IMG/VR virus record: IMGVR_UViG_3300028581_000012
DNA length: 64,000 nucleotides
Source of the DNA: a virus
Direction: 5' to 3' (one strand)
The notes beneath the pieces were generated by a model. It ran no database searches and had not been told where the DNA came from. It saw nothing but the letters and a program-made list of their open reading frames with translations. Of the stretch, positions 5,118 through 54,977 are shown piece after piece. Numbering within the stretch: the first letter of the stretch is position 1; each line of letters starts with the position of its first letter. The position numbers and the translations under genes were made by a program.

Positions 5118-5723
5118 ATGAAACTTTTACTCGAAAAAGAATTGTATCTCATAAAAAAAATGATGGGTATAATATTAGAAGAAGAAGACCCAAAAACAGA
5201 AGAAGAGTGCGATAAAAAAAGAGATACCGGTACTAATTGTTATTGGGCTTACAAAAAAAATAAATGTATAACTTGCCCTGAAGGTCAACGTTTGAGTTAT
5301 CCATCGGAAGAATGTAGTTCATGTGACCCTGATGATGAGGTATTTGTACCAGGATTTGGTTGTGAAAAAATTTGTGATGATGACGAATATTTTAATAAGG
5401 ACAGTGGTGAATGTGAAAAAATACCACCAGGTAAATTTTATGATGGTAACCAATTACGTGATATTGACGAAGATATTTTAAAATTTTGGGATTTAGAAAA
5501 TGAAAAAAGAGAAAAGGAAGGTAAATCAATATTAAATCCTTACGAAAAACCTGAAAGCGAAGAAGACAGGGAGGATTGGGATGAGATTTTTAAAATGGCA
5601 AACTTTTTTGTGAATGAAGACAGGATTAACGGTAAAGAAGAGAAAATATCAATCAGAAAATGGAACAAACAGACGGAGAACTGTTTGAACAATAACACTC
5701 GCCCACCAGAGTTTCCATTATAG
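5118..5723 (+). CDS. cysteine-rich repeat protein with N-terminal leader
   Basis: C..C(P/D)xxx repeats: CITCPEGQ, CSSCDPDDE, CEKICDDDE, CEKIPPGKF. Confidence 0.65.
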   Translation: MKLLLEKELYLIKKMMGIILEEEDPKTEEECDKKRDTGTNCYWAYKKNKCITCPEGQRLSYPSEECSSCDPDDEVFVPGFGCEKICDDDEYFNKDSGECEKIPPGKFYDGNQLRDIDEDILKFWDLENEKREKEGKSILNPYEKPESEEDREDWDEIFKMANFFVNEDRINGKEEKISIRKWNKQTENCLNNNTRPPEFPL

Positions 5724-6566
5724 CTTTTCGTTTTTAATTTCTTTTATTGTTTTAAAATATTCAACTCTTGTTTTTGCAACTTCACAATAGTTTGGTGATA
5801 GTTCTATTCCTAACCATCTTCTACCTAAAACTTCAGCCGCCACCAAACTGGTACCACTTCCTGCGAAGGGGTCTAATACTATATCGTTTTTGTAGGATAA
5901 TATCTTAATCGCCTTAGTTGGTATGTCCATCGAGAACGTAGCCTTGGTGAGTGACTTAGTATCTGCAAAGTAATTCCACTGACCAAACACAAGTTCCATA
6001 AACTCTTTCTTATCTTGTTCTTCATACACCACTTTTTTCTTAAAGGTTCCGTCTTCTTGTTCAATATCAGTTGGGACTCCTGTCCATTGCGGTTGTCCTT
6101 TGGTCAATTTTTTTGGACTATTTTTATAAGCTAGTATCAAACACTCTTTCGGGTTATATATGTATGGTTGACTACAATTCATCCATGAACCCCAAGCGGT
6201 AGTCTTACTTCTATGTGGAGAATCTTCAACTAAATCCACAAGACCGAACCATTTAAATCCTATAGATTTCATTACGTTCCATATTTCAGAAACTATAAAA
6301 ACTCGGCCACCTCGGTCTTTCAAATTAATCTCGAATGGGATATTTACGCAAATTCTACCATCATCTTTTAAAACTCTAAAAGCCTGTTCTAACCATTTCT
6401 TGGAAAATTCAAGGTATTCTTCCAAATTTGTATTATCATCGTAAACATCATAATTAATGTTAACTGAATATGGCGGGCTGGTTAAAACTAAATCTATTGA
6501 ATTTTCAGGAAGTATTTTCATTACTTCAACACAATCCCCATTTATTATTTTTCCTGTTTCTATCAT
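5718..6566 (-). CDS. site-specific DNA methyltransferase (N4/N6, beta class)
   Basis: TSPPY motif IV precedes 'VLDPFAGSGTS' motif I. Confidence 0.92.
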   Translation of the reverse strand: MIETGKIINGDCVEVMKILPENSIDLVLTSPPYSVNINYDVYDDNTNLEEYLEFSKKWLEQAFRVLKDDGRICVNIPFEINLKDRGGRVFIVSEIWNVMKSIGFKWFGLVDLVEDSPHRSKTTAWGSWMNCSQPYIYNPKECLILAYKNSPKKLTKGQPQWTGVPTDIEQEDGTFKKKVVYEEQDKKEFMELVFGQWNYFADTKSLTKATFSMDIPTKAIKILSYKNDIVLDPFAGSGTSLVAAEVLGRRWLGIELSPNYCEVAKTRVEYFKTIKEIKNEKL

Positions 6567-7184: not shown

Positions 7185-8305
7185 TATTCCTCTTCTCTAT
7201 ATTCTTTTAATAATTCATCAGCCGGTCTTGTTCCGTATTTACCATCAATATTTTTAATATCAACTTTAGAATTCATTTTCATTGTTATTTCCATAAGTTC
7301 TTCAGCAGTATTTAAAGATTTTAAAACTTGATTAACAACTCTATAAGAATCGGCATTTGATGCTGGTCTTCTATCTTCTAAATAACCTCTCCAATTTTCA
7401 GCAGTTGTTTTAGGAATTCTAATTGATGAGCCTCTATCCCCAACACCGTATGAAAACTTATCAATATTTTGTGTTTCGTGTTTACCGGTTAATCTCATAT
7501 TATTATTTGAACCATATTCTTTTATATGGTCTTCGTGTCTTGAACCAAACGTATTAAAAATAGATTGGAAGTATTCGTACCCACCTAAACTTCTCATTCT
7601 TTCATTTGAAAAGTTTGTATGCATTCCTGAACCATTCCAATCACCAGTAATTGGTTTTGGATGTAATACAATTTCATAGTTAAAGTTTTCAGACAATCTG
7701 TACAAGAAATATCTACTCATCCATAAATCGTCCGCAGCATTTAAACTACCTTTTGAAAATATTTGATACTCCCATTGTCCAAGAGCAACTTCCGCATTTA
7801 TACCGGTAATTTCCATACCATATAACATACATAAACGCATATGTTCTTCGGCAAAACTACGACCAACAACATTGTGACCAACACCACAATAGTATTTACC
7901 TTGAGGGTCTAATCTAAAACCAGTATCGTGTCCTAAAAATTCATTTGTTTTTTGGTTTTTAATAAAGTATTCTTGTTCAAATCCAAACCAAACATCACTT
8001 TGGTCTTCTATTTTTGACCTCATATTTGATTCGTGTGGTGTCCCGTCAGGATTTACAACTTCACATAAAACATAAACTCTACTATTTTCCAAAGGAAAAC
8101 TTTTTTGTGAGTAATATTTCACAGGTTTAAGAATCCTATCTGAGTTTTCAGTGTCAGCTTGCATTGTAGATGACCCATCAAACCCCCATTCAGGAAATTT
8201 AAACTCAATGGAGTTTAAATCCATTTCTTCAACTTTAACTTTACTTCTGAGGTTAGGTTCAGGTAAATAACCATCCAACCACACATATTCTAATGTAACT
8301 TTCAT
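7184..8305 (-). CDS. glnII: glutamine synthetase type II (auxiliary metabolic gene)
   Basis: EYVWLDG, WGFDGSST, FGFEQEY, NAEVALGQWEYQ, HPKP..GDWNGSGMHTNFS, RLTGKHET, YLEDRRPASN. Confidence 0.93.
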   Translation of the reverse strand: MKVTLEYVWLDGYLPEPNLRSKVKVEEMDLNSIEFKFPEWGFDGSSTMQADTENSDRILKPVKYYSQKSFPLENSRVYVLCEVVNPDGTPHESNMRSKIEDQSDVWFGFEQEYFIKNQKTNEFLGHDTGFRLDPQGKYYCGVGHNVVGRSFAEEHMRLCMLYGMEITGINAEVALGQWEYQIFSKGSLNAADDLWMSRYFLYRLSENFNYEIVLHPKPITGDWNGSGMHTNFSNERMRSLGGYEYFQSIFNTFGSRHEDHIKEYGSNNNMRLTGKHETQNIDKFSYGVGDRGSSIRIPKTTAENWRGYLEDRRPASNADSYRVVNQVLKSLNTAEELMEITMKMNSKVDIKNIDGKYGTRPADELLKEYREEE

Positions 8306-8484
8306 TTTATTTTATTTATGTAATTTATTATTTGTTCTTTTTTTACTCCTTTTTTATACAAGTTATAGACTTGCATAGAAAAATTGTCGGTACACACAAT
8401 AGCATCCGCTTTTAAGTAGTTTTCAAGATTATGTAGATTATTAAGTATATTTTCTTTTTTTAATACTCTTTTATTAAACCCCAT
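8302..8484 (-). CDS. small hypothetical protein (MGFNKR)
   Basis: ORF track; overlaps glnII start (ATGA). Confidence 0.6.
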   Translation of the reverse strand: MGFNKRVLKKENILNNLHNLENYLKADAIVCTDNFSMQVYNLYKKGVKKEQIINYINKIK

Positions 8485-8602
8485 TTTGTTTTTTTTCTTT
8501 AATGGTTAAATATAACTTTCTAACTTGATTACCTAACTCTGTATCGTTAGGGTATTTTTTTATTAAATTTTTTATTTCTTTAACTAATTCTTTTTTTTTC
8601 AT
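8474..8602 (-). CDS. small hypothetical protein (42 aa, 'YPNDTELGNQVR')
   Basis: Translated by hand; fills gap in operon. Confidence 0.55.
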   Translation of the reverse strand: MKKKELVKEIKNLIKKYPNDTELGNQVRKLYLTIKEKKQNGV

Positions 8603-8616
8603 ATTAGAAATATAAA

Positions 8617-9369
8617 TTATTCGCGACTTTTTGTCAAACTAGGTTTACTTAATATTTTGGATTGTTGTATATAATTTAATATTTTTCTTTTTGATATTGG
8701 AAGAAGAGTTTCGTTAAATGGGAAGTTATTATCGTGATTAACTTTAAAAACAATTATATTTTTGTGGATTAACGGGTCCTGTAGATTTTTAATTAATGAT
8801 TTTCTATTTTCAAACAATTCAGGTGATAAGTTGTTATCCTTAACTTCACATATTTTTTTAACTTGACATTTTAAATCTAAAGTATTTTTTTTGATTTCTT
8901 TTATAATGAATTCATATAAAAAGTTTTTGCCATTATTTTCAATAATAAATAAACCTTCTTTTTTATCAAAACTTTTTTGATTGCTAATAACTGTAAGTGA
9001 TACGGCATCGTTAACCAATTCCCAAATTGCTTTTGCTTGGTCAAAAAATTCTTGTAATTTTTGTGATGAAAATTTACAAATCCTATAGACCTCTAAAATG
9101 TCTTCTTGGGTCATTAATGGAATGTCTTGGGCTACTAAATCTGAAATTAGTATTTCTTCATCTTTTTCTTTTATTTTTTTGGTGAGCATTAAAAACTGAC
9201 CTTTTTGAATCATCAAATTTATGTTTGCCAAATGAAGCGACAAGAATTGAAAATTTGGGTATAACTTAAAGTTGGATAGGTCTTTATCTATTTTTTGTAG
9301 ATAACTTAATAAGATGTATTGTTTGTGTTCTAAATCAATAGGTTCTTGAAACGGCCAATTTGTATCCAT
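8617..9369 (-). CDS. hypothetical protein ('PIDLEHKQYILLSYLQ')
   Basis: ORF track. Confidence 0.7.
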   Translation of the reverse strand: MDTNWPFQEPIDLEHKQYILLSYLQKIDKDLSNFKLYPNFQFLSLHLANINLMIQKGQFLMLTKKIKEKDEEILISDLVAQDIPLMTQEDILEVYRICKFSSQKLQEFFDQAKAIWELVNDAVSLTVISNQKSFDKKEGLFIIENNGKNFLYEFIIKEIKKNTLDLKCQVKKICEVKDNNLSPELFENRKSLIKNLQDPLIHKNIIVFKVNHDNNFPFNETLLPISKRKILNYIQQSKILSKPSLTKSRE

Positions 9370-9409: not shown

Positions 9410-10609
9410 TTAGTCGTATCTAATAATAATAAAATCAAGTCCATTTACATTTAATTCGTCGTGGTCACCATCATAACTTCCAAATATATTACCCCAACTA
9501 TCATGGTTAATTATAAAATTAATAACATCTCCTTGGTCGACATAATCCAAAATATCACTCTTATCAAGACCAGTTTCTTTAAAATAAGATAAAAATTCAT
9601 CTTCATTATTATCTACCCACATTTCAATAGCCTCTTCAATTTCATTTTCGTCAAAATCACCTTTTGGATTTTCTTTGATGTCTTCAATAAGTTCTTCTAA
9701 ATCAGATATTTCTTCTTCCAAACTGTTTTCAGTCTCTTCATCCAAATCTTCGTTATCAATTCTGTATTGTAGTTTAGACATTTTTTCTTCATAGATTCTA
9801 ATATAATTTTCTTGTTCTTTTGTAAGTTTTTCTTCTAATCCAAAATCTTCAGGACTATCATACATAGGTCCTTCTATATACCATCGTAACCAGTCTCTAA
9901 CCCTTTCTGAATCAAGGTGGTCTTCCCATACCCAATTTGCAAATGCATCATAACCTAATTCATCAATTCTAGATTCAATAGCTTCTCGAGCATTTTGTTC
10001 AATTGTTCTTGAATCAAAAACTATGTATTCATTTTCCATACCTTCTTCTCCTAACCACGTAAATGATTTACCACCATAATGGTTATAATTGTTAGGATAT
10101 AAGTTATATTTGTCTTCCAAAACTATTTCACCGTCTTCTTCAATTTCTTGGGGGTAGTTATTATTTTCTAAGTATTCATATAAAGCTTCTGTTTGGTAAG
10201 ATATTAATTTTTTATTATTTATATTCCAAGCGTCTTCTTTTCTTAATTGGTCTAAATAATTGAGTCTTTTTTGTAGTTCTTTTTGTTTTCTAATAATTTC
10301 TCTTCTACTTCCATAGTCTATAATACTTTTAGCTTTATCTTTGTCAAAAACGTCAACGTTAGAATATGATATATCTAAATCACCATTTATCTTTGATATT
10401 AAATTAAGATTTTGAATGTCTTTATTGTTATTAAGATTCAAATTTCCGTCAATTATAATTTTTTTGTTTCTATATTGAGGTAATCTAAGAATATTTGCAA
10501 CATCATCATTCACATACTTCAATAGTTCTAAAAATTCGCTAGGTGAAATAATTACTTCATCTTGCTCGTTTTCTAAAATTATATTTCTGATAATATTTTT
10601 ATATGACAT
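9410..10609 (-). CDS. acidic hypothetical protein with leader and GNLNL/GDLDI short repeats
   Basis: ORF track; TATTTAT upstream. Confidence 0.75.
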   Translation of the reverse strand: MSYKNIIRNIILENEQDEVIISPSEFLELLKYVNDDVANILRLPQYRNKKIIIDGNLNLNNNKDIQNLNLISKINGDLDISYSNVDVFDKDKAKSIIDYGSRREIIRKQKELQKRLNYLDQLRKEDAWNINNKKLISYQTEALYEYLENNNYPQEIEEDGEIVLEDKYNLYPNNYNHYGGKSFTWLGEEGMENEYIVFDSRTIEQNAREAIESRIDELGYDAFANWVWEDHLDSERVRDWLRWYIEGPMYDSPEDFGLEEKLTKEQENYIRIYEEKMSKLQYRIDNEDLDEETENSLEEEISDLEELIEDIKENPKGDFDENEIEEAIEMWVDNNEDEFLSYFKETGLDKSDILDYVDQGDVINFIINHDSWGNIFGSYDGDHDELNVNGLDFIIIRYD

Positions 10610-10713
10610 ATTTTATAAATATTACAAAAAAAAGAATTGATTAATTCAAAAAATGATTTAAAGTTTTAAACAAAGATATTTATAATAAAATAAACTAATT
10701 AAAAATTATAACC

Positions 10714-10860: not shown

Positions 10861-10922
10861 TTAGTATTTAACTTAATTTTTTTTTACATAAGATTGTAAA
10901 AATAAAAAGTTAAATATTAAAA

Positions 10923-11774
10923 ATGTCACAAATAGAAATCAACAATCCATTAGATGGAAAAAGATTATGTAATGCTTTAGCGGATTTACTTGTAAAAAAA
11001 TTTGAAGAAACAACTCCTGGGTGTAAAACTGAAATAACAGTATTTAACCACAGGAGTTTTTTTATTGTGAATGGTTTTACAACCTCAACTAAAACAATAA
11101 ACATTGCAGACTTATTCAAAAATTATCTCAAAAATTTTAATGATAAGATGTATGAAACTATCAAAGTAATTGATATTATCAAATTTGTGGATGTTTTAGT
11201 TGTAAATCCACTAAACATTAATTTTAATTACAATAAAAATTATGATAGTATTCAAAAGGAACTATGTTTATTAGTGGATGAATTTTTCAATAATGGAATC
11301 AAAGTAAACTTAAAGTTAGATTTAAAAAATAAAATAATGTTTTATCAAGCAAATAATAGTGAGTCCTTATTTGTTGAAAAGTTAAATTTAAAGTATCCTG
11401 AATATAAGTTAATTAAGTATAATTTTGATAATATAGAATACAGTTCAGATAAAAAATATGGTTTATCTTTTGGAAGTGAAAAATTATATTATTTTTTAGG
11501 TGACTACATATCAAATCATTTATTTAATAAATCAATATCTAATAAATTAAAATTTTGTATGTATAGTGATGAAAATTTTAAAGATATTAATTCAGAAAAT
11601 ATTATTTTTAAAATATCAAATAATGACCATATTGTTAAAACAGAATGGTTAGAGTCTTTAGTTTTAGATGTATTCCCATTTGATTCAGGTTCATTACTTA
11701 ATACTTTCACTGAAGAAAATTTAGAAACAAAAACTAAAGAACTTAATTTAATTAATGAACTTATATTATTCTGA
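10923..11774 (+). CDS. degenerate S-adenosylmethionine synthetase (MetK)-like protein
   Basis: N-terminus and C-terminus echo MetK segment patterns, but GHPDK and GGGAFSGKD are absent. Confidence 0.5.
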   Translation: MSQIEINNPLDGKRLCNALADLLVKKFEETTPGCKTEITVFNHRSFFIVNGFTTSTKTINIADLFKNYLKNFNDKMYETIKVIDIIKFVDVLVVNPLNINFNYNKNYDSIQKELCLLVDEFFNNGIKVNLKLDLKNKIMFYQANNSESLFVEKLNLKYPEYKLIKYNFDNIEYSSDKKYGLSFGSEKLYYFLGDYISNHLFNKSISNKLKFCMYSDENFKDINSENIIFKISNNDHIVKTEWLESLVLDVFPFDSGSLLNTFTEENLETKTKELNLINELILF

Positions 11775-12056
11775 CAAATATTTACGGACCAACTCTAAAG
11801 CCTCTGTTACGCCTTCGTAGTCGTCATCAGGGGCTAAAAGTTTAACGTTTGAATAATCTTCATTATTTTCTTCCAATGTCATTAACATAAGTGCCGGAAC
11901 ATATTCATTATTTTTAGCTTCAGCAAACGCTCCATACTCCTCTTCATATTCGTAAATATCTCTATCCACATAAGGTATGTTGTGTTCATCAAACAACTCT
12001 TTAATATGAACACAATGAGGACAACTTTTCATACTAAATAAAATTACTACTTTCAT
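11766..12056 (-). CDS. glutaredoxin-like protein
   Basis: CPHC and 'YVPAL' cis-Pro motif. Confidence 0.88.
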   Translation of the reverse strand: MKVVILFSMKSCPHCVHIKELFDEHNIPYVDRDIYEYEEEYGAFAEAKNNEYVPALMLMTLEENNEDYSNVKLLAPDDDYEGVTEALELVRKYLSE

Positions 12057-14494: not shown

Positions 14495-15856
14495 TTAGAA
14501 GAAAATATGTAATGGTGAATCATCACTAATGTTTTGTAAACTTTCAGGTAACGCATCTTTATTACTTCCTTTAAGATTAATAATAGAAAGTCTTGGTAAT
14601 TCTGAAATACAATCAGGTAATCTTTGTAACTCTGGGTTATCAGGTAAAGACAAGAATTGTAGTTTTTGAAGATTACAAATTGAATCCGGTAACGACACAA
14701 CACAACCAACTAAGTGGATAGCCGTAAGATTTGTTAATTCACCAATACTTTGTGGGAATTTGAATTTCAATTCTGCACCTTTAGCTATAATTTCAAGTCT
14801 TGTAATGGTTTTAGGTAAACTGTTAATAAATTCTTCAGTTCCGTATAATGCCATAAATTTGGATGCTGGGTCTCTTGGGTAATCAACAGTGGCTTTGTTT
14901 TTATCAACACCTTGCATAATATTTTCCATCATTTCAGGTTTGAAATATGTTTTCAAATCTTCATTTTTCTTTAAAAACTCAACAAGGTCAATTTGCCTGT
15001 CATCTGCGTCCATAAACTGTTTGTCTTGGAAATGGAATTGGTATCTATTTGCAGGTAAACCTGATATGTCACCTACTTCTTTACCATAGCCTTTAAATGG
15101 TGTTGGTGAATTTGGAATAACAACATAAAGTGGTCCTTTTGATAAATAAGATTTCCAATAACTAAGACCAGGTGAAGATGTACACCATCTTGTTTCACCT
15201 TTAATTGGTTCGTTGTGGGAACCACCATAAAAACAAGCGGCATCTTTACCTAAATCATCAGTTCTTGTAATTTTTACCACTGTCCAATTAGAAAGTCTTG
15301 TAACATTATCGGCACCTGGATGTGAATATGTTTGTGAGGCTTCTTTTTTCTCTTCTTTAGATGCCTTGGTTTTTTCTAAACTAAAATCTTTTACTTGGTC
15401 GTAAAGTGTCTGTGGTGTTAGTTTATTGATGTCTCTATATTCTTGTGGTAATTTGTTTTTGTTTCTTTCAAACTTCATCAAATCTTGAGTTGTTTTATAC
15501 AAATCTTCTAAAAACAAATCTTGCCATTCCTTAATTGCTTGTTTTACCGCAGGACTATTAGGGTCGGTAACTCCACTTTGAAATTCAATTTTTGGTGATA
15601 CAAAGTTTTTCAATAACCATTGGGTGTACTTACCAATTTTAACGTTCTCCATTTTTTCAGCAGTAACATTATCTTCAGTCATGCCATCAGGAATTTTTGA
15701 TGTGGGGTCTCCTGCGATAATTTTAAATAATACTTGTAAAGGCATCATTCCTTTTTGCCCTCTTTCCTTTGGTTTAACGTATTTGTCAAAAAGAACTTGA
15801 AATCTTGAACTTTCAAGAATTATATCTCTTAAAATATTGGTAAATCTAATAGCCAT
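14495..15856 (-). CDS. leucine-rich-repeat protein with jumbo-phage N-terminal domain and leader
   Basis: C-terminal LRRs (FPQSIGELTNL, LPDSICNLQKLQFLSL, LPDCISELPRL); 'AACFYGG..TRWCTS' domain. Confidence 0.82.
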   Translation of the reverse strand: MAIRFTNILRDIILESSRFQVLFDKYVKPKERGQKGMMPLQVLFKIIAGDPTSKIPDGMTEDNVTAEKMENVKIGKYTQWLLKNFVSPKIEFQSGVTDPNSPAVKQAIKEWQDLFLEDLYKTTQDLMKFERNKNKLPQEYRDINKLTPQTLYDQVKDFSLEKTKASKEEKKEASQTYSHPGADNVTRLSNWTVVKITRTDDLGKDAACFYGGSHNEPIKGETRWCTSSPGLSYWKSYLSKGPLYVVIPNSPTPFKGYGKEVGDISGLPANRYQFHFQDKQFMDADDRQIDLVEFLKKNEDLKTYFKPEMMENIMQGVDKNKATVDYPRDPASKFMALYGTEEFINSLPKTITRLEIIAKGAELKFKFPQSIGELTNLTAIHLVGCVVSLPDSICNLQKLQFLSLPDNPELQRLPDCISELPRLSIINLKGSNKDALPESLQNISDDSPLHIFF

Positions 15857-15902
15857 CTTAATTATTTTATATATAAATATTATGATTTAAAGAAAACGAT
15901 AA

Positions 15903-16751
15903 TTAATAGTTCATTATTAGTAGTTCTTCTCCCATGTTTTGTTTTTCACCTTTCTTTGCCGCTGCCGCTTTAGCAAACTCTTTTTTAACCCAAGTGTATT
16001 GGTCTTCAGGAAACCATTGGTGTAATAATTCAAAATCATAATACGATAAAGAAAACTTACCTTGAACATTATGTAATACATTAGCAAGTCTTTCGTGGTC
16101 TTGTCTATCAAAATCGTGATTTGAGTAATATTTCCCTTCACCAACGATATAATACGGCGGGTCAACATAAAAATATGTCGTAGGTGAGTCATATTTTGTG
16201 ATTACATCTCCAAAATCCATATTTTCAACATCAGTAATTTTAAGAAAATGTTCAATGTAATTACTATCCATTAATTTATTTTTAAATGATGTGAATTTTG
16301 AGTGATATTTACCTTTTAAATCAATAAATTTGGATTTTTCAGGATTTGCCCCCGAGAACACTTGACTTAAAACGTATGCATATTTTGCCGCAGTTTTATA
16401 GTCACCAGTCTCTACGTTGAAATTTTCATTGAATAATTCAGCCTGAAAGTTGATAAATTGTTCTTCACATATTGGGTTAGTTGGTGTAATCCCTTTTTGT
16501 TGAACAACTAATTTTTCACATTCTTCTAACAATCTTTTTGGGTTCCTTATGCAATAAAATAGATTGTAATTTAAAGGGTTATAGTCATTATATACAACTT
16601 TATTTAAATTAGGATAATTTTTTAAATCCATTTTAAGGAAAACCCAAAACATTCCGCTAAAACTTTCAACGTATGTTTCAATATCATTAGGAATATAAGG
16701 TATGATGAATGATGAAATTTTGGATTTACCTCCGATATAACTTAGTGCCAT
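15903..16751 (-). CDS. Dam-like (D12 class) DNA adenine methyltransferase
   Basis: YIGGKS, YVESFSG, 'FYVDPPY'. Confidence 0.9.
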   Translation of the reverse strand: MALSYIGGKSKISSFIIPYIPNDIETYVESFSGMFWVFLKMDLKNYPNLNKVVYNDYNPLNYNLFYCIRNPKRLLEECEKLVVQQKGITPTNPICEEQFINFQAELFNENFNVETGDYKTAAKYAYVLSQVFSGANPEKSKFIDLKGKYHSKFTSFKNKLMDSNYIEHFLKITDVENMDFGDVITKYDSPTTYFYVDPPYYIVGEGKYYSNHDFDRQDHERLANVLHNVQGKFSLSYYDFELLHQWFPEDQYTWVKKEFAKAAAAKKGEKQNMGEELLIMNY

Positions 16752-36899: not shown

Positions 36900-37326
36900 A
36901 CTAAAATATTTTTAATAATTCATTCCCCCTCTATCAGGTCGAATTTTATCTGCAATATATTGAAAGTTTTTAATAAATAAAGTAGCTAAAGTTGCAAAAG
37001 TAACAAGACCACCAACAGCAGCAATTTTGTCTGACTTTTTTGTTCTTCTTACTTCTCTTCTGATTTTTCTTCCCGTTCTTCTAAACCATTGAACTAATTT
37101 TTTTAACCATTTTGGTTTTCTTCTTGATAACTCCATTATGTAGTTTTCAGCTTCTTCTTCTGTCATATCTGCAAATAAATTATCTACACATCTTTCCATT
37201 GCCATATCATTGTTTTCGTCACAATTTTCTATAGCAACTTCAGCTTGCATATTTGTATTTTCGTTAACAATTCTTCTAACAATTCTTGTTAAATCTGATT
37301 CTGTTAATCTTACTATTCTTTTCATA
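36840..37326. repeat. 61-bp identical direct repeat (36840-36900 and 37266-37326) encoding shared N-terminal leader
   Basis: Compared base by base. Confidence 0.9.
36912..37325 (-). CDS. leader-bearing protein with C-terminal TM helix
   Basis: MKRIVRLTESDL leader; 'IAAVGGLVTFATLATLFI'. Confidence 0.7.
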   Translation of the reverse strand: MKRIVRLTESDLTRIVRRIVNENTNMQAEVAIENCDENNDMAMERCVDNLFADMTEEEAENYIMELSRRKPKWLKKLVQWFRRTGRKIRREVRRTKKSDKIAAVGGLVTFATLATLFIKNFQYIADKIRPDRGGMNY

Positions 37327-37385
37327 ATTATTTTTTTTTAGTTATTTTACTATAAATACTTTACAAATACAAAAAAAACCAATCT

Positions 37386-37991
37386 TTACCAAATTTTTTT
37401 TTCTTTCATATAACCAAGAACACAAGTGTAAGAATCCGCCATATCAAAACATTCTTTTTTCAAAGTGTTATTCTTTGTGTAATGCCAAGTGATTTGAGGT
37501 TCTTTATCTGAAACTTTTTTCCAAATAATTTCTTTTTTATCTGCATCTTTTGGTAATCCACCAAACAATACAAATTTATCTTTGTCATTTTTTTGTATTA
37601 AATCAGGCCAAGCATATTTTCTTGAATTGTATGTTGAAATGTAGTTTGGAACAATACCCAAAATATCATAAATTGATTTTGTAATCATTGAATTATATCT
37701 TAAAAGTATCCCAACTGTCCATACATTGTTTGAATTTAATAATGGTTCCTCAATTACTACTTTAGTAATACCAAGGTTTCTGTAATTTTGAAGTTTTTCT
37801 TCAAATGAAACGACCTTTAATAATAACTCTTGGATTTTATCTTCAGGTTTAGGTTTTATCACTGGTGAAAAATGTGTTAATTCTAATAACTCTTTTGATT
37901 GAATGTCAAATAAAGACCACCCGATTGTTCGAGTTGATATGTCTAAGCCAAGAACTTTTGGTGAGTTCTTCAAATCTGATTTTGTCCCCAT
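37386..37991 (-). CDS. RuvC-like Holliday junction resolvase / RNase H-fold nuclease
   Basis: 'LGLDIST', 'VVIEEP', 'DMADS'. Confidence 0.75.
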   Translation of the reverse strand: MGTKSDLKNSPKVLGLDISTRTIGWSLFDIQSKELLELTHFSPVIKPKPEDKIQELLLKVVSFEEKLQNYRNLGITKVVIEEPLLNSNNVWTVGILLRYNSMITKSIYDILGIVPNYISTYNSRKYAWPDLIQKNDKDKFVLFGGLPKDADKKEIIWKKVSDKEPQITWHYTKNNTLKKECFDMADSYTCVLGYMKEKKIW

Positions 37992-37997
37992 ATAAAA

Positions 37998-40211
37998 TTA
38001 AAAATCGTACTTAATAGGATACTGTTGGACACCTTGTCTTTTTTCAGGTGATTGTATCTTAGAAATAACCATAAGTTCTTTGTCTGCATTGTAAAGTGCA
38101 ACTTCAGTAACATAAGGTGGTGTCGTACCATCCCAAGTTGGATTTGAAGAATCAAAGAATTGTGTTTGACCTAAATTACATAAGAAGTTCATAACATATA
38201 TAGTTGCTTGAATATCTGTTTCAATTGTACCAAAAAAGAAGAATTCACCACCAAAGTTTAATGTAACCCCCGTTTGATTTAATACAGGTAATGTTATATA
38301 ATCATTAAGGTCATATATTGGTGCAGTGTCATACATATTTTTTGTCAACTGTAAAGTTGTTCCAGTTAAACCTGTTACAGTTAGATAACCACCAACCGTT
38401 GTTGCTGATAACTGTGATGTGACATCAATTTCTCTCCATTGCGTTACATCAGGTCTTGTTGTTGCTGTTGTAACTTTTTGAGCCAATAACTTTATATCAT
38501 TTGCCGTAAATCCTGATGGTAATCCAACTGAAGGTACTTGTAAAAATGGGAACTCATTACCAAACCTAACAAGGATGTCAGAAGCGCCCGGTAATAAACT
38601 TTGGTCGTTTCCTGTGATTGTTTGGTAGTAATTACAATGAAGTGAATTTGTAAATGCTGAGTTATTAAATCTATATGTTAAAAACAAAGTTTCAGTATTT
38701 CCTGTTAACAATCCTTGAGTTCCACCTAAAACGCCACTAAATGTATTTGGTGTTACTAAACCTAATTTAGGTGCCGGTAAAGTCCAACTTCTATTTGATT
38801 TGTAATTTAATGCTGCAACTATTTCATCATCATCAAAAACAATAATTTTTAAATCAGGAAAAACCTTACCAACTCTATTTGGGATACCATTTGAATTTGC
38901 GTGAGTGTCCCAAAGATGATAATATCTTAAACCAGGAGCATTAAAGTTTATACTTTTTCTTGACTCAATATAATGTGGAGTAAATAAATTTAAACTAGTA
39001 AAACCTGATGGGTCTGTATATAATACTTCACCAGTTGTACCACTTGGATTTTTATGCCACATTAACCACGGAATTGAAAGTTTGAAGTTTATTGCTTGAC
39101 CTGTATTTCCCGGATTGTTTGCGTCAAAATCTTGCATTGCAAACTTTTCACCATAATAATTGTCTATTGCTTGATTTGTGTAATGTACAATCGCAATGGC
39201 CTTTTGTTCGGATGGTTTTAGAGTTATTTTTTCAGAAAATGAATTATAAAAATAAACTGAGTCAGTATCTGTTTGACCACTATCGGAATAGTAACCCAAA
39301 TATTCTTTAGAACCCGTATATCCTGTTGATGCGAATTGATTAAAGTCTTGGTTTACCGTATCAAAAATACCAGCCGGTGATTCTGTCCACGGAATGTTCA
39401 TATTCCAAACTTTAACATCATTTTGTGAAACATCACAATTAGTTTCAAAATTAAATACATTCGGATGCCAATAAGGTTCAGGTGTAAAAGAATCATAAAT
39501 AACAGTCATACCTGATGGGTAAAAAACAACTCTTGAGTCACCAGTATAACCCATTCCACTAAAGTTTGGTAGTTGTCTATCAACTTGTATATTTACGGTT
39601 GTCGCAGTAGATGTGTCACCTGTTACTCCAACCACAACATAACTAAATATCGGCGCCGCTCCTGTAAATGGTTGTATGTTATCCGTTCCAAATAAAAATA
39701 AAAACATTCCATTTGTAACTGTACCTGATACCGTTGGGTCAATACTTGAATATGTTAATGTTAATACATCTCCCGAGGTTACCGCCGAATTTGAAACAAT
39801 AAAATTTGGATTAATTGTATAGGCTGTTGAGGTGTATGCACTAAAAACAACGGGTGAGCCAGTTGACCCTGTGAAAAAACCACGAGGAGCTGCACTATTA
39901 AAAACATTATCTATGTAAGACGCATCAAATGGAACACCTAAAGTACTTCCTGATGTTGAGTCCACAAATAACGGGTATTTAACTTGCATTCTATTTTTTT
40001 CAGGAATTGGAGCTAAATTTTGTGCGTTGTATTGAGGCATTAAAACATTAAGTTGTACATAATCTGTATTACTTGTACAGTTATAACAAACTTCACTATC
40101 TCCTACCTCAAAATAAGAAATATCAAATTTACCTTGCGATATCTTTTTTCTTGCTGCGTCAGTGATTATGGTGTTAATTAACGCTGAGGTATTTTTGATT
40201 ATATATGACAT
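37998..40211 (-). CDS. virion structural protein (tail/baseplate)
   Basis: N-terminal 'ITDAARKKI..FEVGDSE' and C-terminal 'YVTEVALYN..ELMVISK' resemble tail-collar-fibre type proteins. Confidence 0.7.
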   Translation of the reverse strand: MSYIIKNTSALINTIITDAARKKISQGKFDISYFEVGDSEVCYNCTSNTDYVQLNVLMPQYNAQNLAPIPEKNRMQVKYPLFVDSTSGSTLGVPFDASYIDNVFNSAAPRGFFTGSTGSPVVFSAYTSTAYTINPNFIVSNSAVTSGDVLTLTYSSIDPTVSGTVTNGMFLFLFGTDNIQPFTGAAPIFSYVVVGVTGDTSTATTVNIQVDRQLPNFSGMGYTGDSRVVFYPSGMTVIYDSFTPEPYWHPNVFNFETNCDVSQNDVKVWNMNIPWTESPAGIFDTVNQDFNQFASTGYTGSKEYLGYYSDSGQTDTDSVYFYNSFSEKITLKPSEQKAIAIVHYTNQAIDNYYGEKFAMQDFDANNPGNTGQAINFKLSIPWLMWHKNPSGTTGEVLYTDPSGFTSLNLFTPHYIESRKSINFNAPGLRYYHLWDTHANSNGIPNRVGKVFPDLKIIVFDDDEIVAALNYKSNRSWTLPAPKLGLVTPNTFSGVLGGTQGLLTGNTETLFLTYRFNNSAFTNSLHCNYYQTITGNDQSLLPGASDILVRFGNEFPFLQVPSVGLPSGFTANDIKLLAQKVTTATTRPDVTQWREIDVTSQLSATTVGGYLTVTGLTGTTLQLTKNMYDTAPIYDLNDYITLPVLNQTGVTLNFGGEFFFFGTIETDIQATIYVMNFLCNLGQTQFFDSSNPTWDGTTPPYVTEVALYNADKELMVISKIQSPEKRQGVQQYPIKYDF

Positions 40212-40243
40212 ATTTTATAAATATATTTTTTTATAAATTTATT

Positions 40244-41818
40244 TTAAGAAAAACCTATTTTTTGTAAAGGCATAGTTTTAGGTGAACCGTTAACACTTAT
40301 ACCACTACAGGTTGATGGTGTTATAGTAACATTTGTAATTGAAACTGAATCCAATATATACCCTTCTAATTGACATCCTCTAAATTCTATAGTTGGTGTG
40401 TTAATAAATTGGGTAATTGTTCCGTTTATAAGTCCACCTGAAGATATTGTCGCAGTATAAGTATTTGTGTAAGAACTAAAGTTTATATAAGATGAAGCAC
40501 AAGAAGGTCTACTTAATCCTGTTGATGTGACAATTGAATTAACAGGTGAACTAAGTGTTGCACTACCAACAGTTGTTGCGGTTATTGAATTTGTAATTAC
40601 AGGAACGTTTGATGCGAATGTTTTACCTGTAAATCCAACGGCAGTATTAATTGTAAAGTTTACAGTTTTACCAGCAGGTAATGTAGGACTTACATTAATT
40701 TGATAGTACCAAGTTTTTGTTACGGTAGTCCCAACATTCACTTGATTAGCTAAAGGTGTCAAACTTAAATTTAAAACATAATTAGTAAATGCACTTTGTG
40801 GTGTTAGAGTTACTGATTGTGTTGTAACAGTATTATTGGTATCTTTAATATGAACTGTATAATTTCCAGCAACTAAACCTAAAAAGACATTTGACGCTTG
40901 GTAATTAACCCCATTTATTGAATAAGTGTAAGAAGGGACCCCACCATATCCTGTCACATTTAACACTCCATTACTTGTATTTGAGCAAGTTGGTTGGGTT
41001 GTTACAACAGATAATGTAAGTGGTGGTGTTGTGCAAACTCCTGTACTAACTAATACGGTTCCTTGATAAGTCCCTAACAATGACCAATTTCCTGTTGGTG
41101 GTGTTGTTGGTTGAAGTAGTGCGGGTACACCAGGATTAGTCCATCCACTTATTTCCCATCTTGTATTTCCTGTGTTGTAGTACATTGTTGTTGTTGAACT
41201 TGTCCAAGATGGGTATCCATTAATTGTTGAACCGCTTGTGTATGTGGTTAGATATGTGTTGTTTAATGAAGGAGTATATTCAAAACATAAATTTTGTGGG
41301 TAAACCGGTGTAGGTACTGGTGGTGGTAAACAATCTGAACAAGTATCAAATGGCCCTGTAGAAATTACTGCAAAATTATTTACATAGGATTGTCCCGTAT
41401 AAAGTGTTTGACCACTATGTGTCCAACAACCCGTTTGTGTTGTTAAACTATAAACTTTACCATCAACAAACTTAGATGGTAAATCGGCAACATAATAAAC
41501 AAAGTTTCCTGAATTTTGACAATCCTCAAATTGTTCCAAATAAAAACTATCATAGTCAACACTACAAGTTGTTCTTCCTGTAAAATCACCATAATAATCA
41601 ATAACCGTTGCGGTATAATCACCAGGTAGTAAGTTTGTTATTAAAGAACCTTGAGCTCCGTTGCTCCAAGAAATATTATATGGTGGTGTTCCTCCTGTAA
41701 CATAAAGAGTTATAAGACCATTTGTAGAATCAGGTGTTGACGCATTAATACTATCACAATCTAACCCCAATGGTAGAAGTGTTATTATATTACAACTATT
41801 TCCACTTAAAAGTCCCAT
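40244..41818 (-). CDS. SprB-repeat-containing virion/fibre protein
   Basis: 'TGGTPPYNISWSNG..NLLPGDYT', 'GGVPSYTYSING..GLVAGNYTVHIKD'. Confidence 0.75.
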   Translation of the reverse strand: MGLLSGNSCNIITLLPLGLDCDSINASTPDSTNGLITLYVTGGTPPYNISWSNGAQGSLITNLLPGDYTATVIDYYGDFTGRTTCSVDYDSFYLEQFEDCQNSGNFVYYVADLPSKFVDGKVYSLTTQTGCWTHSGQTLYTGQSYVNNFAVISTGPFDTCSDCLPPPVPTPVYPQNLCFEYTPSLNNTYLTTYTSGSTINGYPSWTSSTTTMYYNTGNTRWEISGWTNPGVPALLQPTTPPTGNWSLLGTYQGTVLVSTGVCTTPPLTLSVVTTQPTCSNTSNGVLNVTGYGGVPSYTYSINGVNYQASNVFLGLVAGNYTVHIKDTNNTVTTQSVTLTPQSAFTNYVLNLSLTPLANQVNVGTTVTKTWYYQINVSPTLPAGKTVNFTINTAVGFTGKTFASNVPVITNSITATTVGSATLSSPVNSIVTSTGLSRPSCASSYINFSSYTNTYTATISSGGLINGTITQFINTPTIEFRGCQLEGYILDSVSITNVTITPSTCSGISVNGSPKTMPLQKIGFS

Positions 41819-41819
41819 A

Positions 41820-43394
41820 TTACCAAGTTGCTCCGCTTATTCTTTTCCAACCTGTGTTGTCTTTATAGTAAAAATAACTATTGTCCCATCGTAAAGAACC
41901 GGGTTCTCCTAATGTGTCTAAACTACTTGTTGGTGTACCTGAATAAGCCAAAACAATGTTTGGAACATATACTGTATTTGATAATGTTGCAGTAATACCA
42001 GTCCCTCCTAAAATAACTGAACGAAATGTATTTACCGTATTTCCTGAACCACCAATAATTGCAGAATCATAAACTGGAGCTGAAGGTCCAGAACCCGTGA
42101 TGGTATTATATTTTCCTCCTAAAATTGTTGAGTTATCCGTATCACCACTCTGAATTAAATTAGAAATACCTCCTAATATCGCACCTTGTGAATTATTAAT
42201 TGTAGATTGTTTACTATAAACAAAAGATAATTCCCCGTTATTTATGTTGTCATTTCCCCCCGCAAAAGCTTTGTCTGAGTTAATTTGATTTGCTACCCCA
42301 ATAATAAATGAATTATTCCCTTCTATTTTGTTAGAGTCCCCAAAAGAAACTGAACTTGTTCCGACCACATAATTATTATTATTAAAAACACAAGAATTGA
42401 TGCCAAATACGGTGTTGGATTTTCCTTGTGCAAAAGTAGATTTACTTAATGCGTTATTAGTTTCATTTATAGCCATTGAAAAATCTCCCAAGGCTGCAGC
42501 ACTGCTACCTTTAGCGTTAGAAATGAATCCACCAACGTTTTGGTTACCATTCCAAGTAGAAACAGGCGCAGTATTTCCAACAACCGCAAATGAACTAGTA
42601 CTTGTTGAAATATCGTACAAATAAATTATTGTTTGACTTCCGTTAAAAGTTGCTCCTGATACTTTTCTATAGGTTTCAGTTAAAGTATTTGCATATGACA
42701 CATCATTTATATACACATAATCATCTGAAGTATATTCTGTTGTGATGTCACCATAAGAACTTGAAAGGTAAATAACTCCAGCAGTCAATCCTGTTGCTAA
42801 ATATCCTTTGTTTGTACCGGCCAAAGTTCTATAACCTTCAGCGTGTGAATAAGTACCTATTGCAATTGTAGTCTTACCTTCAGCGTGAGATGCATTTCCA
42901 AATGCAAGTGTGTTTTCACCTTCAGCGTGTGAAGTAATTCCTGACGCGATTGTACCTGAACCTTCAGCGTGTGTGTAATTACTTAACGCTTGTGTATTAT
43001 TACCAAACGCAAAAGATAAAGTCCCTTGAGCATCAGAACCTGTGGATTGAACTCTATTATGTACTGTTATTTCGTTTGAACAAGCATGAATATTTTCAGT
43101 GTAAAAACTTGTAATACAATTTCCCGAACCACCTGTAAATGGTGTTGTAAGACCTGAAACGGTAAAAGTTCCGCCAGTACTATTGGTAAAAGTTAATGTA
43201 CCTCCTGAAGAAACTGCAGTTCCACCTGTTAAATATACATCAGGTGAACCCCCAAATAAAGGTACCAACTGACTTAGTGATGCTTTATATGATGAACCAC
43301 TAGCACTTTGTGATGTATCACCTGTTATTACAATATGTATAAGGTCATTAAGTGAAGCCCCTGTGGCGAATGTCCTTGATGTTAAAGTTGCCAT
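41820..43394 (-). CDS. tail fibre/adhesin with YadA-like beta-roll repeats
   Basis: Repeated (S/T)HAEG; 'ILGGxxN' repeats; C-terminal 'GWKR'. Confidence 0.75.
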   Translation of the reverse strand: MATLTSRTFATGASLNDLIHIVITGDTSQSASGSSYKASLSQLVPLFGGSPDVYLTGGTAVSSGGTLTFTNSTGGTFTVSGLTTPFTGGSGNCITSFYTENIHACSNEITVHNRVQSTGSDAQGTLSFAFGNNTQALSNYTHAEGSGTIASGITSHAEGENTLAFGNASHAEGKTTIAIGTYSHAEGYRTLAGTNKGYLATGLTAGVIYLSSSYGDITTEYTSDDYVYINDVSYANTLTETYRKVSGATFNGSQTIIYLYDISTSTSSFAVVGNTAPVSTWNGNQNVGGFISNAKGSSAAALGDFSMAINETNNALSKSTFAQGKSNTVFGINSCVFNNNNYVVGTSSVSFGDSNKIEGNNSFIIGVANQINSDKAFAGGNDNINNGELSFVYSKQSTINNSQGAILGGISNLIQSGDTDNSTILGGKYNTITGSGPSAPVYDSAIIGGSGNTVNTFRSVILGGTGITATLSNTVYVPNIVLAYSGTPTSSLDTLGEPGSLRWDNSYFYYKDNTGWKRISGATW

Positions 43395-43418
43395 TTTTTA
43401 TTTTATATATATCATAGT

Positions 43419-43709
43419 TTATTGAAAGTCGTATGGTATTCCGTCTTGGAATTCAAAACATATTAAATTTTCAAATTGTTTATATGTGCAAAAACTATCT
43501 GAACAGAATTCACATCCATTTGCATCTATTATTTTAATAACATAACTGTTCATTGATTCAAAGGAAACAGGTAAGGTAAATGAATATGGTACGGTAGTAA
43601 TTGTTGCAATATATTGACAAGTACCATATATACCACATTCATCGCAAACCCACACGTCGTATGGACTTGTTCCTGATATAATTGTGTTAAGTGTTACTAT
43701 TGTTGCCAT
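43419..43709 (-). CDS. small structural protein, paralog family A
   Basis: 'SGTSPYDVWVCD..C.YI..IKIIDANGC'. Confidence 0.7.
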   Translation of the reverse strand: MATIVTLNTIISGTSPYDVWVCDECGIYGTCQYIATITTVPYSFTLPVSFESMNSYVIKIIDANGCEFCSDSFCTYKQFENLICFEFQDGIPYDFQ

Positions 43710-43711
43710 TT

Positions 43712-45322
43712 TTAACAAACTCCATTAACTGTGCAGAACTCAGTGATTACACCACTATTATCAACACTATAAATTTTATTTCCGTATCTTATATAATCAA
43801 TCGTCAAAGGATATAATAATGATGAATTACTATAAACTGTAACACCTGTTTGTATTTGATTAATTGAAGGGTGGGTATAGAATATTGTTTGAACTCCAAA
43901 GTTTGTTAATTGACATCCTGGACAATTAACTGAATATGCACCATTACCTATCCAAGTATTAAATGTACCAACGAGTGGTTCAACTTGTAAACATTCTGTG
44001 CAGTCAACATATGTTGTTGCTGTTGTCGCCGTAAATCTATCTTCATTTACCACAATATAACCTGAAGGTGGAACATAATTTATAAAGTATCCTACATAAC
44101 TATAACAATTTCCGGAATAATCCCTAATTACTTCTCCTGGGTCTAGATTTGTTGGTGGATATGCTGTTTGTGTAATCATAGATGTTGTCGTACAAGATGT
44201 GAACACAAAGTAAGTACCAGGGGCATATGTTGGTGTAGGTGTCGGCGTAGGTGTAGGTGTCGGAGTTGGTGTCGGAGTTGGTGTAGGTGTCGGAGTTGGC
44301 GCTGGACAAACAGTACATCCTGTGTACGCTGAAACAACAAGTTTAACTGTCGCGTTTGGACTAGCAGTTGTATCTTGTATGTAAGTTGCACATTTTAATT
44401 GGTCGTTAATGACACCCAAGAACGTCTGACCTGTTGTTATTGGTGTTCCTGATATATCTAAAGAACCTGAAACATAATAAGTGACGTTTTCATTACAATC
44501 TCTTAACTCTTTAACTCTAAAACATACAAAGTTTCCATCATCAATTGTAAATGTTACAGTTTCACCCGTTAAATTAATTGTTGGTGTCGGTGTTGGAGTT
44601 GGTGTAGGAGTTGGAGTTGGTGTAGGAGTTGTTCCACTAACTGTAATATCAACGGTAAACCCTGAACATATATCGGGTGTTGGTGATGGTGTCGGAGTTG
44701 GTGTGGGTGTTGGAGTTGGTGTGGGTGTTGGAGTTGGGGTTGGTGATACACATAACACATCAACTTCAAAATCAAATATATCACAAACAGGTGTTGGTGT
44801 TGGCGTTGGAGTAACACAAGAACCTGCGTAAAATAAATCCGTATATAAATTTGGACAAGTTGATAATGTTGGGTCTTGTCCAAAGAAATAACAACCTGTT
44901 CCAGGTGCTGTACCTAAACACCATTTTGTAGGTCCTTTATAAATGTATCCCGGTTGTGTTCCACCTGTAAAAAACGGTAAAGTATTATAACTTCCCGCCA
45001 CAACATAACTACCACTATATGCTGAAAAATTTACATCGTTAATTTGAACACAATACACATTTGAACAACATTCTCCCGTTGCGCAAAATGATGATGAGCA
45101 ACCTGATAGTTGTTGGGTGTATATTCCGTTAGGTACAATACTTGTTGCAGTGAATCCTGAAGTGAATGCAGATACTATAGTATAACATCCATTAACAACA
45201 ACACTATCATAAGTGACACTAAAAACTGTTGTAACAGCCGATGTTGCACCGGTCCAATTTGATTGGTCCGTATAATATTGTAATCCGGGATAACAACAAC
45301 TTTGTAAGAGTATATTCGCCAT
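43712..45322 (-). CDS. Cys-rich virion protein with mucin-like Pro-Thr tracts
   Basis: Four (PT)n runs separating Cys-rich domains. Confidence 0.8.
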
Positions 45323-45367
45323 TAAAAAATTAACTTTATAATATAAATAAGCTTATGTTTATTTTAT

Positions 45368-47403: not shown

Positions 47404-47451
47404 AAAGAAAAATTATCAAATAAAGTATACAAATAAACATTTTTTTAAAAA

Positions 47452-48258: not shown

Positions 48259-48281
48259 AGGTTTTTATAAATAAATATTTG

Positions 48282-48569
48282 TTATGTTATTTTGATTCTA
48301 AATCCATCTTCTTGTAATATATAAAAACCATCTTCTTGTAATAAATAACTTCCACAATCAATTTGTATTTCTCTTATACACCCATCCGCAGTTATAACTT
48401 TAATATAAACAATGTCTTCATTTGGAAAAAAAACTGATGAATCTATTACGACATTTGGTGGGATAGAAGTGACCCCTGATACATAAAAACAAGATACGTT
48501 TGTTGGGTCACATATATAAACATCATATGGACTTGTGCCACTTGTTACTCCAGTAATTTCTATTATCAT
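48282..48569 (-). CDS. small structural protein, paralog family A with LLQEDG repeats
   Basis: 'SGTSPYDVYICD..IKVITADGC..YLLQEDGFYILQEDG'. Confidence 0.7.
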   Translation of the reverse strand: MIIEITGVTSGTSPYDVYICDPTNVSCFYVSGVTSIPPNVVIDSSVFFPNEDIVYIKVITADGCIREIQIDCGSYLLQEDGFYILQEDGFRIKIT

Positions 48570-48572
48570 AAT

Positions 48573-54945: not shown

Positions 54946-54977
54946 TTTTTTATTTTATAAATAGTTTATGTAATTTT

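Follow-up and report, generated by a model that had tools for sequence, protein, structure and literature searches.

A miniaturised, predicted non-catalytic relative of MetK encoded beside a micro-protein gene in uncultured lake jumbo phages

S-adenosylmethionine (SAM) synthetases (MetK/MAT) are represented by the Pfam families PF00438, PF02772 and PF02773, by the NCBIfam model TIGR01034 and by structures such as PDB 1xra, 4le5 and 6fwb. The archaeal MATs (M. jannaschii, PDB 7p82) are a very divergent branch of the same fold; they are active enzymes of about 400 amino acids with a conserved active site. Among phages, the SAM lyase of T3 (SAMase; PDB 8bb1) is known to bind and inhibit MetK, sitting on the outside of the tetramer with the active site 25 A away (bioRxiv 10.1101/2023.02.27.530186). 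In trypanosomatids, the prozymes, which are dead paralogs of S-adenosylmethionine decarboxylase (AdoMetDC) and of deoxyhypusine synthase, oligomerise with the active enzyme (PMC5201418, PMC3663545). Here we describe a gene in a 64,000-nucleotide stretch of the virus record IMGVR_UViG_3300028581_000012 from IMG/VR (hereafter, the window). The open reading frame (ORF) at 10923..11774 (+), at the position given in a preliminary description of this DNA, starts with ATG and encodes a protein of 283 amino acids, while nearly all genes in its neighbourhood lie on the minus strand. We find that this protein is a full-length, collinear and very remote MetK homolog.

The likeness to MetK proposed in the preliminary description was recovered by Foldseek, VIA-align and hhalign alike. 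An AlphaFold2 model built without templates (predicted local distance difference test, pLDDT = 78.9; predicted template modelling score, pTM = 0.69) contains three beta-alpha-beta-beta-alpha-beta repeats, and a Foldseek search with this model against the PDB gave at least 167 matches at E <= 0.001 (best E-value = 1.8e-9), all of them MetK/MAT among the matches listed. The match to PDB 8bb1 is to chain A, which is MetK itself and not the SAMase; the fold of the window protein is that of MetK and not that of a SAM lyase. Superposed by VIA-align, residues 1-283 of the model correspond to residues 19-365 of MAT2A with 247 of the 283 residues aligned (Z = 14.7, root-mean-square deviation = 4.3 A). 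Further, a search independent of Foldseek through 48,161 representative chains returned Z >= 8 for three chains only, all of which are SAM synthetases (bacterial MetK, Z = 13.7; thermostable MAT, Z = 13.0; archaeal MAT, Z = 12.5), with the next fold at 6.5. A second model, made for the family member P0179 that is 24% identical to the window protein (pLDDT = 78.1, pTM = 0.78), gave Z = 16.0, 14.2 and 9.5 against bacterial MetK, thermostable MAT and archaeal MAT, respectively, and 5.8 for the next fold. The MetK fold was seen in our structure searches in active SAM synthetases only, that is, in bacterial and eukaryotic MetK and in archaeal MAT.

Searched alone, the window protein matched no MetK in Pfam, PHROGs or the PDB sequences and no Pfam family of any kind. 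Its homology to MetK becomes visible only with a broader profile and with member-wise scans, and not from the single sequence. Seventeen of 41 diverse members matched the Pfam family S-AdoMet_synt_C (PF02773; best E-value = 1.9e-4) and seven matched S-AdoMet_synt_N (PF00438), with any other Pfam family matched by two members at most. The NCBIfam model TIGR01034 (metK) was the top match for four of the five members scanned, down to an E-value of 1.4e-5, at scores (11.5 bits for the window protein and up to 24.2 bits for members) that lie below the curated cut-off of 309 bits. When the 41-sequence profile was searched against PDB sequences, 13 of the 17 matches were MetK chains (best E-value = 0.006), which cover an N-terminal and a C-terminal stretch in collinear order; a narrow family profile run against the same sequences gave only weak matches to SmcR and DUSP16, which we regard as noise. 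Finally, hhalign aligned the family to a reference alignment of 30 sequences, comprising E. coli MetK and MetKs from viral contigs, with a probability of 91.7% (E-value = 7.9e-7), pairing query positions 11-288 with MetK 17-377. The family consensus places a Trp at the MetK FPWE motif close to the C-terminus, where the window protein's own residues are gapped in the hhalign alignment. Structure models, member-wise profile scans and profile searches are thus three independent lines that agree on MetK homology. The motif parallels drawn in the preliminary description hold in this alignment as well: in the N domain HMMER and hhalign give the same register, with P32 at the P of 'DP', G51 at the invariant G54 of GGE and K13/R14 at D16/K17 of the end of GHPDK, and in the C domain both programs align SEKLYY...NHLF to DRSAAY...KNIV (E186/K187 to D271/R272) and WLESLVLDVFPF to the helix before FDLRP.

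While the fold is kept, the machinery for making SAM is gone. The protein had been described as about 100 residues shorter than MetK and as lacking GHPDK and GGGAFSGKD, and both statements agree with our data: it has 283 amino acids against 384 in E. coli MetK (a difference of 101), and the two motifs are absent in the alignment to MetK. Four active-site loops have disappeared (the gating loop, GAGDQG, GDCGLTGRK and most of HGGGAFSGKD), the missing segments being MetK 94-108 (gating loop), 111-121 (GAGDQG), 234-248 (GGPMGDCGLTGRKII) and 252-262 (YGGMARHGGGA). Only four of the 65 aligned MetK columns with at least 90% conservation are kept (G54, D249, G264 and L346). We then considered 16 residues of E. 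coli MetK that serve in the binding of ATP, methionine, Mg2+ or K+. His14 is the acid catalyst and Asp16 a Mg2+ ligand, with Glu55, Gln98, Asp118, Phe230 and Asp238 in the methionine/adenosine site; Glu42, Lys165, Arg244, Lys245, Lys265, Lys269 and Asp271 form the triphosphate and metal site. Among the 30 MetKs used, 14 of the 16 mapped residues are invariant, and E42 and F230 are found in 29 and 28 sequences, respectively. In the MetK-like family all 16 are deleted or substituted. Segments that are unaligned or deleted account for His14, Pro15, Gln98, Asp118, Asp238, Arg244 and Lys245; at the remnants of GHPDK, D16 is replaced by K13 and K17 by R/N14; E42 corresponds to T39, K165 to G125, K265 to L181 and K269 to S185, and E55 (at F52) and F230 correspond to variable columns. 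D271 is the sole mapped residue that is matched by an acidic one, namely E186 (Glu in 25 of the 41 members). The family motif SDxxYGxS looks, in the alignment, like a fused remnant of VDTYGG...FSGKD.

Because every mapped ligand residue has been lost and the active-site loops are gone, the protein is, judged from its aligned residues, a pseudoenzyme with respect to SAM synthesis, predicted to be unable to make SAM in the way MetK does. Pairwise ratios of nonsynonymous to synonymous substitution rates (dN/dS) among five orthologs are 0.08-0.27, indicating that the protein is made and constrained by purifying selection. Selection of this kind, homology to an active enzyme and the absence of the catalytic residues are the features by which a pseudoenzyme is recognised, and all three were found here. 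The catalytically dead, MetK-derived pseudo-enzyme of the preliminary description therefore stands, with fold and homology kept and 16 of 16 residues lost, and we consider it highly probable that the protein is a non-catalytic MetK homolog.

What the family conserves instead is a set of motifs, namely (L)xGKN, TEIxVxN..FFIVxGxTS, VIDxIxY, SDxxYGxS...EKxY and WLESLxLDVFPF. Conservation is strongest in the N-terminal and C-terminal thirds (mean column entropy of 2.07 and 2.10 bits, respectively), and variability is highest in the middle repeat (2.84 bits). Along the strands of the second and third repeats, conserved hydrophobic positions strictly alternate with polar or charged ones of about 3 bits entropy. 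The dimer/active-site face of MetK is nearly invariant. Given that the outward strand positions are polar and variable in the phage proteins, the exposed face of the sheet in these repeats, the equivalent of this MetK face, is not conserved in the family. Conserved polar residues are found rather in the loops that align to the catalytic loops of MetK (G12-K13-N14, G51-x-T53-S54, S175-D176-xx-Y179-G180-x-S182 and E186-K187-x-Y189), along with D84, S245 and D249.

Compared with MetK/MAT, the phage family therefore has the same three-repeat fold over its full length (Z = 13.7-16.0), a collinear alignment that begins directly behind GHPDK and extends as far as the C-terminal PW..D motif, and a few remnants (G54, D249, G264 and the charge of D271/R272), but it is about 100 amino acids shorter, has lost the active-site loops and ligand residues, scores far below the family cut-offs and is confined to viruses. 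The archaeal MAT, also a very divergent branch (Z = 12.5 and 9.5 to the two phage models), differs from the phage family in that its active site is conserved. T3 SAMase offers a functional precedent for a phage protein that acts on the host SAM supply through contact with MetK, as a poison subunit would, although it is an unrelated small beta-barrel that cleaves SAM and the product of an early anti-restriction gene of T3, whereas the phage MetK-like family is known here from sequence and models. The prozymes are a conceptual precedent for a regulatory pseudo-MetK, being dead paralogs in the SAM/polyamine pathway that are kept under selection; they differ in that a prozyme activates its partner and shares a genome with the active paralog, while for the phage protein the active enzyme would be that of the host.

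A word-indexed search of 5.8 billion proteins found 110 homologs of 168-295 amino acids (mostly 283-295), all of metagenomic origin; some of their contigs measure 160-390 kb. Run exhaustively over 1.84 billion cluster representatives, HMMER resolved the MetK-like family into 72 clusters with a maximum length of 295 amino acids, and no fused or full-length MetK-sized forms were present among them. IMG/VR holds 73 loci of the family on viral contigs of up to 292 kb, and GenBank phage genomes gave zero matches. Among one genome each for 185,579 prokaryote species, only a single 6-kb contig carries the gene; this contig belongs to a metagenome-assembled genome (MAG) of Aquiluna, into which a phage fragment was probably mis-binned. 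In essence, then, the family is found in viruses only. Its annotation in public sources is 'hypothetical protein'; the Joint Genome Institute (JGI) name 'frataxin-like iron-binding protein CyaY' for member P0021 was supported by no search made here. The ESM Atlas held no usable match, BFVD a single look-alike (an uncharacterised 208-amino-acid protein of an uncultured phage), PADLOC no match to the MetK-like protein and PHROGs no anti-defence match, and no phage MetK described as truncated or dead came up in our literature search. A described family of this kind is absent from the literature searched and from Pfam, NCBIfam, PHROGs, PADLOC, BFVD and the ESM Atlas.

The MetK-like gene usually follows a micro-ORF (Table 1). 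Its product is a micro-protein of 41-51 amino acids (MGCGCK...KIVEKYYNKK) that starts with an invariant M(x)GCGCK and ends with a conserved VK.AV.KIVEKYY(N/K/S)KK; the linker between them is variable and rich in Q, T and N. In 63 of 72 MetK-like loci, a co-oriented micro-ORF ortholog precedes the gene at a distance of 58-81 nucleotides. The reverse search, starting from the micro-protein, found 197 relatives on viral contigs, and the MetK-like gene was next downstream on the same strand in 67 of the 70 fetched loci with enough room. Like the N-terminal metal site of HypB (CxxCGC), the micro-protein carries Cys-Gly-Cys at its extreme N-terminus, but it has two Cys only and no GTPase domain; its match to the HypB metal-site model (NCBIfam NF053668) has an E-value of 0.023 and 15 bits against a cut-off of 35 bits and serves as a lead only. 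Metal binding by the micro-protein is a guess.

Table 1. Positions of the MetK-like gene, its upstream elements and neighbouring genes in the window, with their recurrence among the 73 IMG/VR loci of the family
Feature	Position	Strand	Remarks
N6_N4 DNA methyltransferase	5718-6566	-	Pfam PF01555, E-value = 7e-37; homolog in flank of 56/73 loci; SAM consumer
Glutamine-synthetase-like, 373 aa	7184-8305	-	Gln-synt_N and partial Gln-synt_C match; 51/73 loci
Gene without assigned identity	8617-9369		homolog in flank of 63/73 loci
Gene without assigned identity	9410-10609		homolog in flank of 64/73 loci
TATTTATA box	10677..10684	+	37 nt upstream of micro-ORF start
Micro-ORF, 48 aa	10714..10860	+	usual upstream partner of MetK-like gene
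Conserved intergenic spacer	10861..10922	+	between micro-ORF and MetK-like gene
MetK-like gene	10923-11774	+	72/73 loci
Glutaredoxin	11766-12056		homolog in flank of 64/73 loci
Gene without assigned identity	12053-12394		homolog in flank of 59/73 loci
PcfJ-like protein, 600 aa	12415-14217	-	homolog in flank of 59/73 loci
D12-class (Dam-like) N6-adenine DNA methyltransferase	15903-16751	-	Pfam PF02086, E-value = 2e-22; homolog in flank of 31/73 loci; SAM consumer

The neighbourhood recurs in most of the 73 loci, and the MetK-like gene is a syntenic core gene of its clade, not a variable accessory gene. Both SAM-dependent methyltransferases mentioned in the preliminary description were found in the window (Table 1). 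The glutamine-synthetase-like gene is an unusual nitrogen-metabolism gene for a phage, and the gene at 9410-10609 has a weak PADLOC match to DrmD (E-value = 0.0078) that is probably noise. A leucine-rich-repeat protein of 453 amino acids (14495-15856, minus strand) is encoded, together with the PcfJ-like protein, just downstream of the glutaredoxin gene, and both occur in many related loci.

The carriers are a clade of uncultured aquatic (lake) jumbo phages of up to 292 kb, which we sampled by five large contigs, two of them 96-99% complete at 281-292 kb. For the phage of the window, the best cultured match is a Microcystis phage (26% identity in a gp46-like protein), so that there is no close cultured relative and the Flavobacterium host assumed in the preliminary description stays putative; PHROG matches of the phage are few. 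No canonical metK was found in the carriers, where the MetK C domain was checked in four contigs and the N domain in five, and the sole weak match was the MetK-like gene itself. Each of the five contigs carries 1-2 N6_N4 methylases, and none of them a radical-SAM enzyme. With DNA methylases of their own and no metK of their own, the carrier phages depend on host SAM. Canonical full-length metK does occur on other viral contigs, in at least 126 confirmed stretches (L075-L154) that include contigs of 245 and 330 kb and have 46-84% identity to E. coli MetK; some of these may be host DNA in proviruses. We also considered the decay in place of a phage metK and found no syntenic evidence for it, as five large contigs with canonical metK lack both the MetK-like family and a homolog of the gene at 9410-10609 (neither search had a positive control). 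In the small sample searched, canonical metK and the MetK-like gene do not co-occur.

Upstream of the two genes, conserved DNA elements can be recognised. The spacer between the micro-ORF and the MetK-like gene consists, in order, of the stop codon, (C)TATTTAAC, a T-run, ACATAAGATTGT, AAAATAAA, about 20 nucleotides and the ATG, and by eye this order of blocks recurs in most of 40 distinct orthologous upstream sequences; the spacer probably carries expression signals. The element TAAGATTG resembles the Bacteroidota -7 box TAnnTTTG and does not match it. Of 44 distinct upstream regions of orthologs, 30 contain the TATTTATA box, with its median position at -38 from the micro-ORF, and many orthologs have a TTTACA element about 18 nucleotides upstream of it. 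Within the window, TATTTATA also occurs in coding orientation 12-37 nucleotides before the start codons of several structural genes (starts 40211, 45322, 48258 and 54945) and likewise before the genes starting at 10609, 15856 and 37325, the plus-strand ORF starting at 4549 and the micro-ORF; the copies include 15872-15879 and 10614-10621, and others lie within 37325-54963. TATTTATA may be the late-promoter box of the clade, in the opposite sense to the TATAAATA of T4.

What, then, might a MetK without an active site do? We hypothesize that the MetK-like protein acts by binding and not by catalysis, and that its surviving conserved polar residues, in the counterparts of the MetK catalytic loops, would form a remodelled binding site. 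The most plausible ligand would be the co-encoded micro-protein, with its two conserved ends joined by a flexible linker. The pair could in that case work as an adaptor or a regulator, perhaps in the supply or use of SAM, and its target might be either the DNA methylases of the phage or a part of the host MetK surface away from the dimer face. Our best reading of the data, towards which we lean with modest confidence, is a non-catalytic binding module that acts together with the micro-protein, perhaps on the SAM supply. Taken part by part, joint action with the micro-protein is quite plausible while falling somewhat short of probable, and a role in SAM metabolism is doubtful; such a role is considered because pseudoenzymes often regulate their ancestral pathway, as trypanosomatid prozymes do (PMC5201418, PMC3663545). 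The most specific version, in which the pseudo-MetK and the CGC micro-protein bind host MetK or the phage DNA methylases and so take control of the host SAM supply, we regard as speculative and somewhat unlikely.

Several observations weigh against the idea of a binding module paired with the micro-protein. The pairing is not obligatory: the micro-ORF is missing upstream in nine of 72 MetK-like loci, among them four inspected loci of the most distant MetK-like subgroup (L059, L063, L068 and L069), and in three loci (L179:2714-3844, L206:2711-3691 and L225:2704-3807) the micro-ORF is followed by a different, unrelated gene of 326-376 amino acids (MATLNNFIEWF...). The micro-protein can thus pair with another partner, or else the slot is exchangeable, and the adjacency of the two genes may reflect only a shared promoter region. 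Invariant columns number just five in the broad alignment (N17, G51, G180, S245 and D249), which is few for a specific ligand site, and the conserved loop residues would cluster into one surface patch only as projected from the MetK alignment. Both models are of moderate confidence (pLDDT 78-79), with the C-terminal third at 66-72 in the first model and the middle repeat disordered in that of P0179. As for the four loci of the distant subgroup (about 7830-8870), their MetK-like gene encodes 288 amino acids at 28-29% identity, is divergent from a gene for a 1249-1325-amino-acid protein (MAK(D/N)..IVP(Q/K)PTGTT...) and has a T4-type TATAAATA about 110 nucleotides upstream of its start.

The conserved loop residues could also belong to a repurposed enzyme, in which D84, S175, D176, Y179, S182, K187, Y189 and D249 would build a new active site for another reaction, perhaps on the CGC micro-peptide, a nucleotide or a metabolite. 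Their location in loops aligned to the catalytic loops of MetK is in keeping with this idea, as is the fact that E186/K187 keep the charge of MetK D271/R272, and a small peptide gene paired so tightly with it is reminiscent of peptide-plus-modifier pairs. However, D249 is the sole charged residue among the five invariant columns, K13, E186 and others vary in distant members, and no similarity to any other enzyme family came out of the sequence and structure searches. Further, the micro-peptide is conserved at both ends, unlike the leader/core pattern of modified peptides. A new catalytic function therefore seems unlikely to us.

A different use of the same scaffold would be as a poison subunit: the dead protein would heterodimerise with host MetK through a conserved flat beta-sheet face and leave half-empty active sites, so that SAM would fall and type I restriction-modification and BREX would be disabled. 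It is established that the active sites of MetK lie between the two subunits of a tight dimer, and a MetK homolog without catalytic residues, in carriers without a metK of their own, agrees with such a mechanism. The precedent of T3, which inhibits MetK by protein binding and so escapes BREX, points in the same direction, but it works differently, through a small unrelated protein placed outside the MetK tetramer and far from the active site (bioRxiv 10.1101/2023.02.27.530186). The strand positions that would dock on the nearly invariant host interface are polar or charged and highly variable, which is unexpected, and pre-formed tight MetK dimers would probably not be poisoned quickly. SAM is, moreover, needed by the phage itself, given the N6_N4 methylases of the carriers and the additional Dam-like enzyme of the window. 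The gene is a syntenic core gene and not a variable accessory one, we found no evidence of an early promoter but an upstream box common to structural genes, and neither PADLOC nor PHROGs gave an anti-defence match. We judge this mechanism to be quite unlikely.

That same upstream box would fit a late structural or assembly factor unrelated to SAM, for instance a chaperone or a virion-associated protein for which the MetK scaffold had been co-opted, since TATTTATA precedes the two-gene unit as it precedes structural genes; the core status of the gene and the complete loss of the MetK ligand residues agree with this. We consider it very unlikely, as a TTTACA-like element is also found upstream in many orthologs and in the search of 48,161 chains virion proteins did not score above Z = 5.1. 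That the protein is a very divergent SAM synthetase which is still active, as suggested by the fold, the homology and the lack of a canonical metK in the carriers, is extremely unlikely in view of the 16 lost residues and four deleted loops, of TIGR01034 scores of 11-24 bits against 309, and of the established fact that archaeal MAT, about as distant in structure, keeps its active site.

The structural and evolutionary part of our conclusion, that these phages encode a miniaturised, non-catalytic branch of the SAM synthetases, is solid. A conserved MetK that has been reduced in size and stripped of its catalytic residues would be a new branch of the superfamily and a natural experiment in pseudoenzyme evolution. 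SAM is central to the conflict between phage and host, through type I restriction-modification, BREX and the phage's own DNA methylation, and, because T3 targets MetK by protein binding, a phage look-alike of MetK is a candidate for a new way of manipulating the SAM supply. Even without a link to SAM, the pairing with the CGC micro-protein and the status as a core gene give handles on a large clade of uncultured lake jumbo phages whose genes are mostly unannotated. If the pseudo-MetK and its micro-protein do take control of the host SAM supply, SAM would be channelled to phage DNA methylation or withheld from SAM-dependent defences, and the family would represent both the first branch of the SAM-synthetase superfamily to have given up catalysis and a new device for takeover or counter-defence made from a dead copy of the target enzyme.

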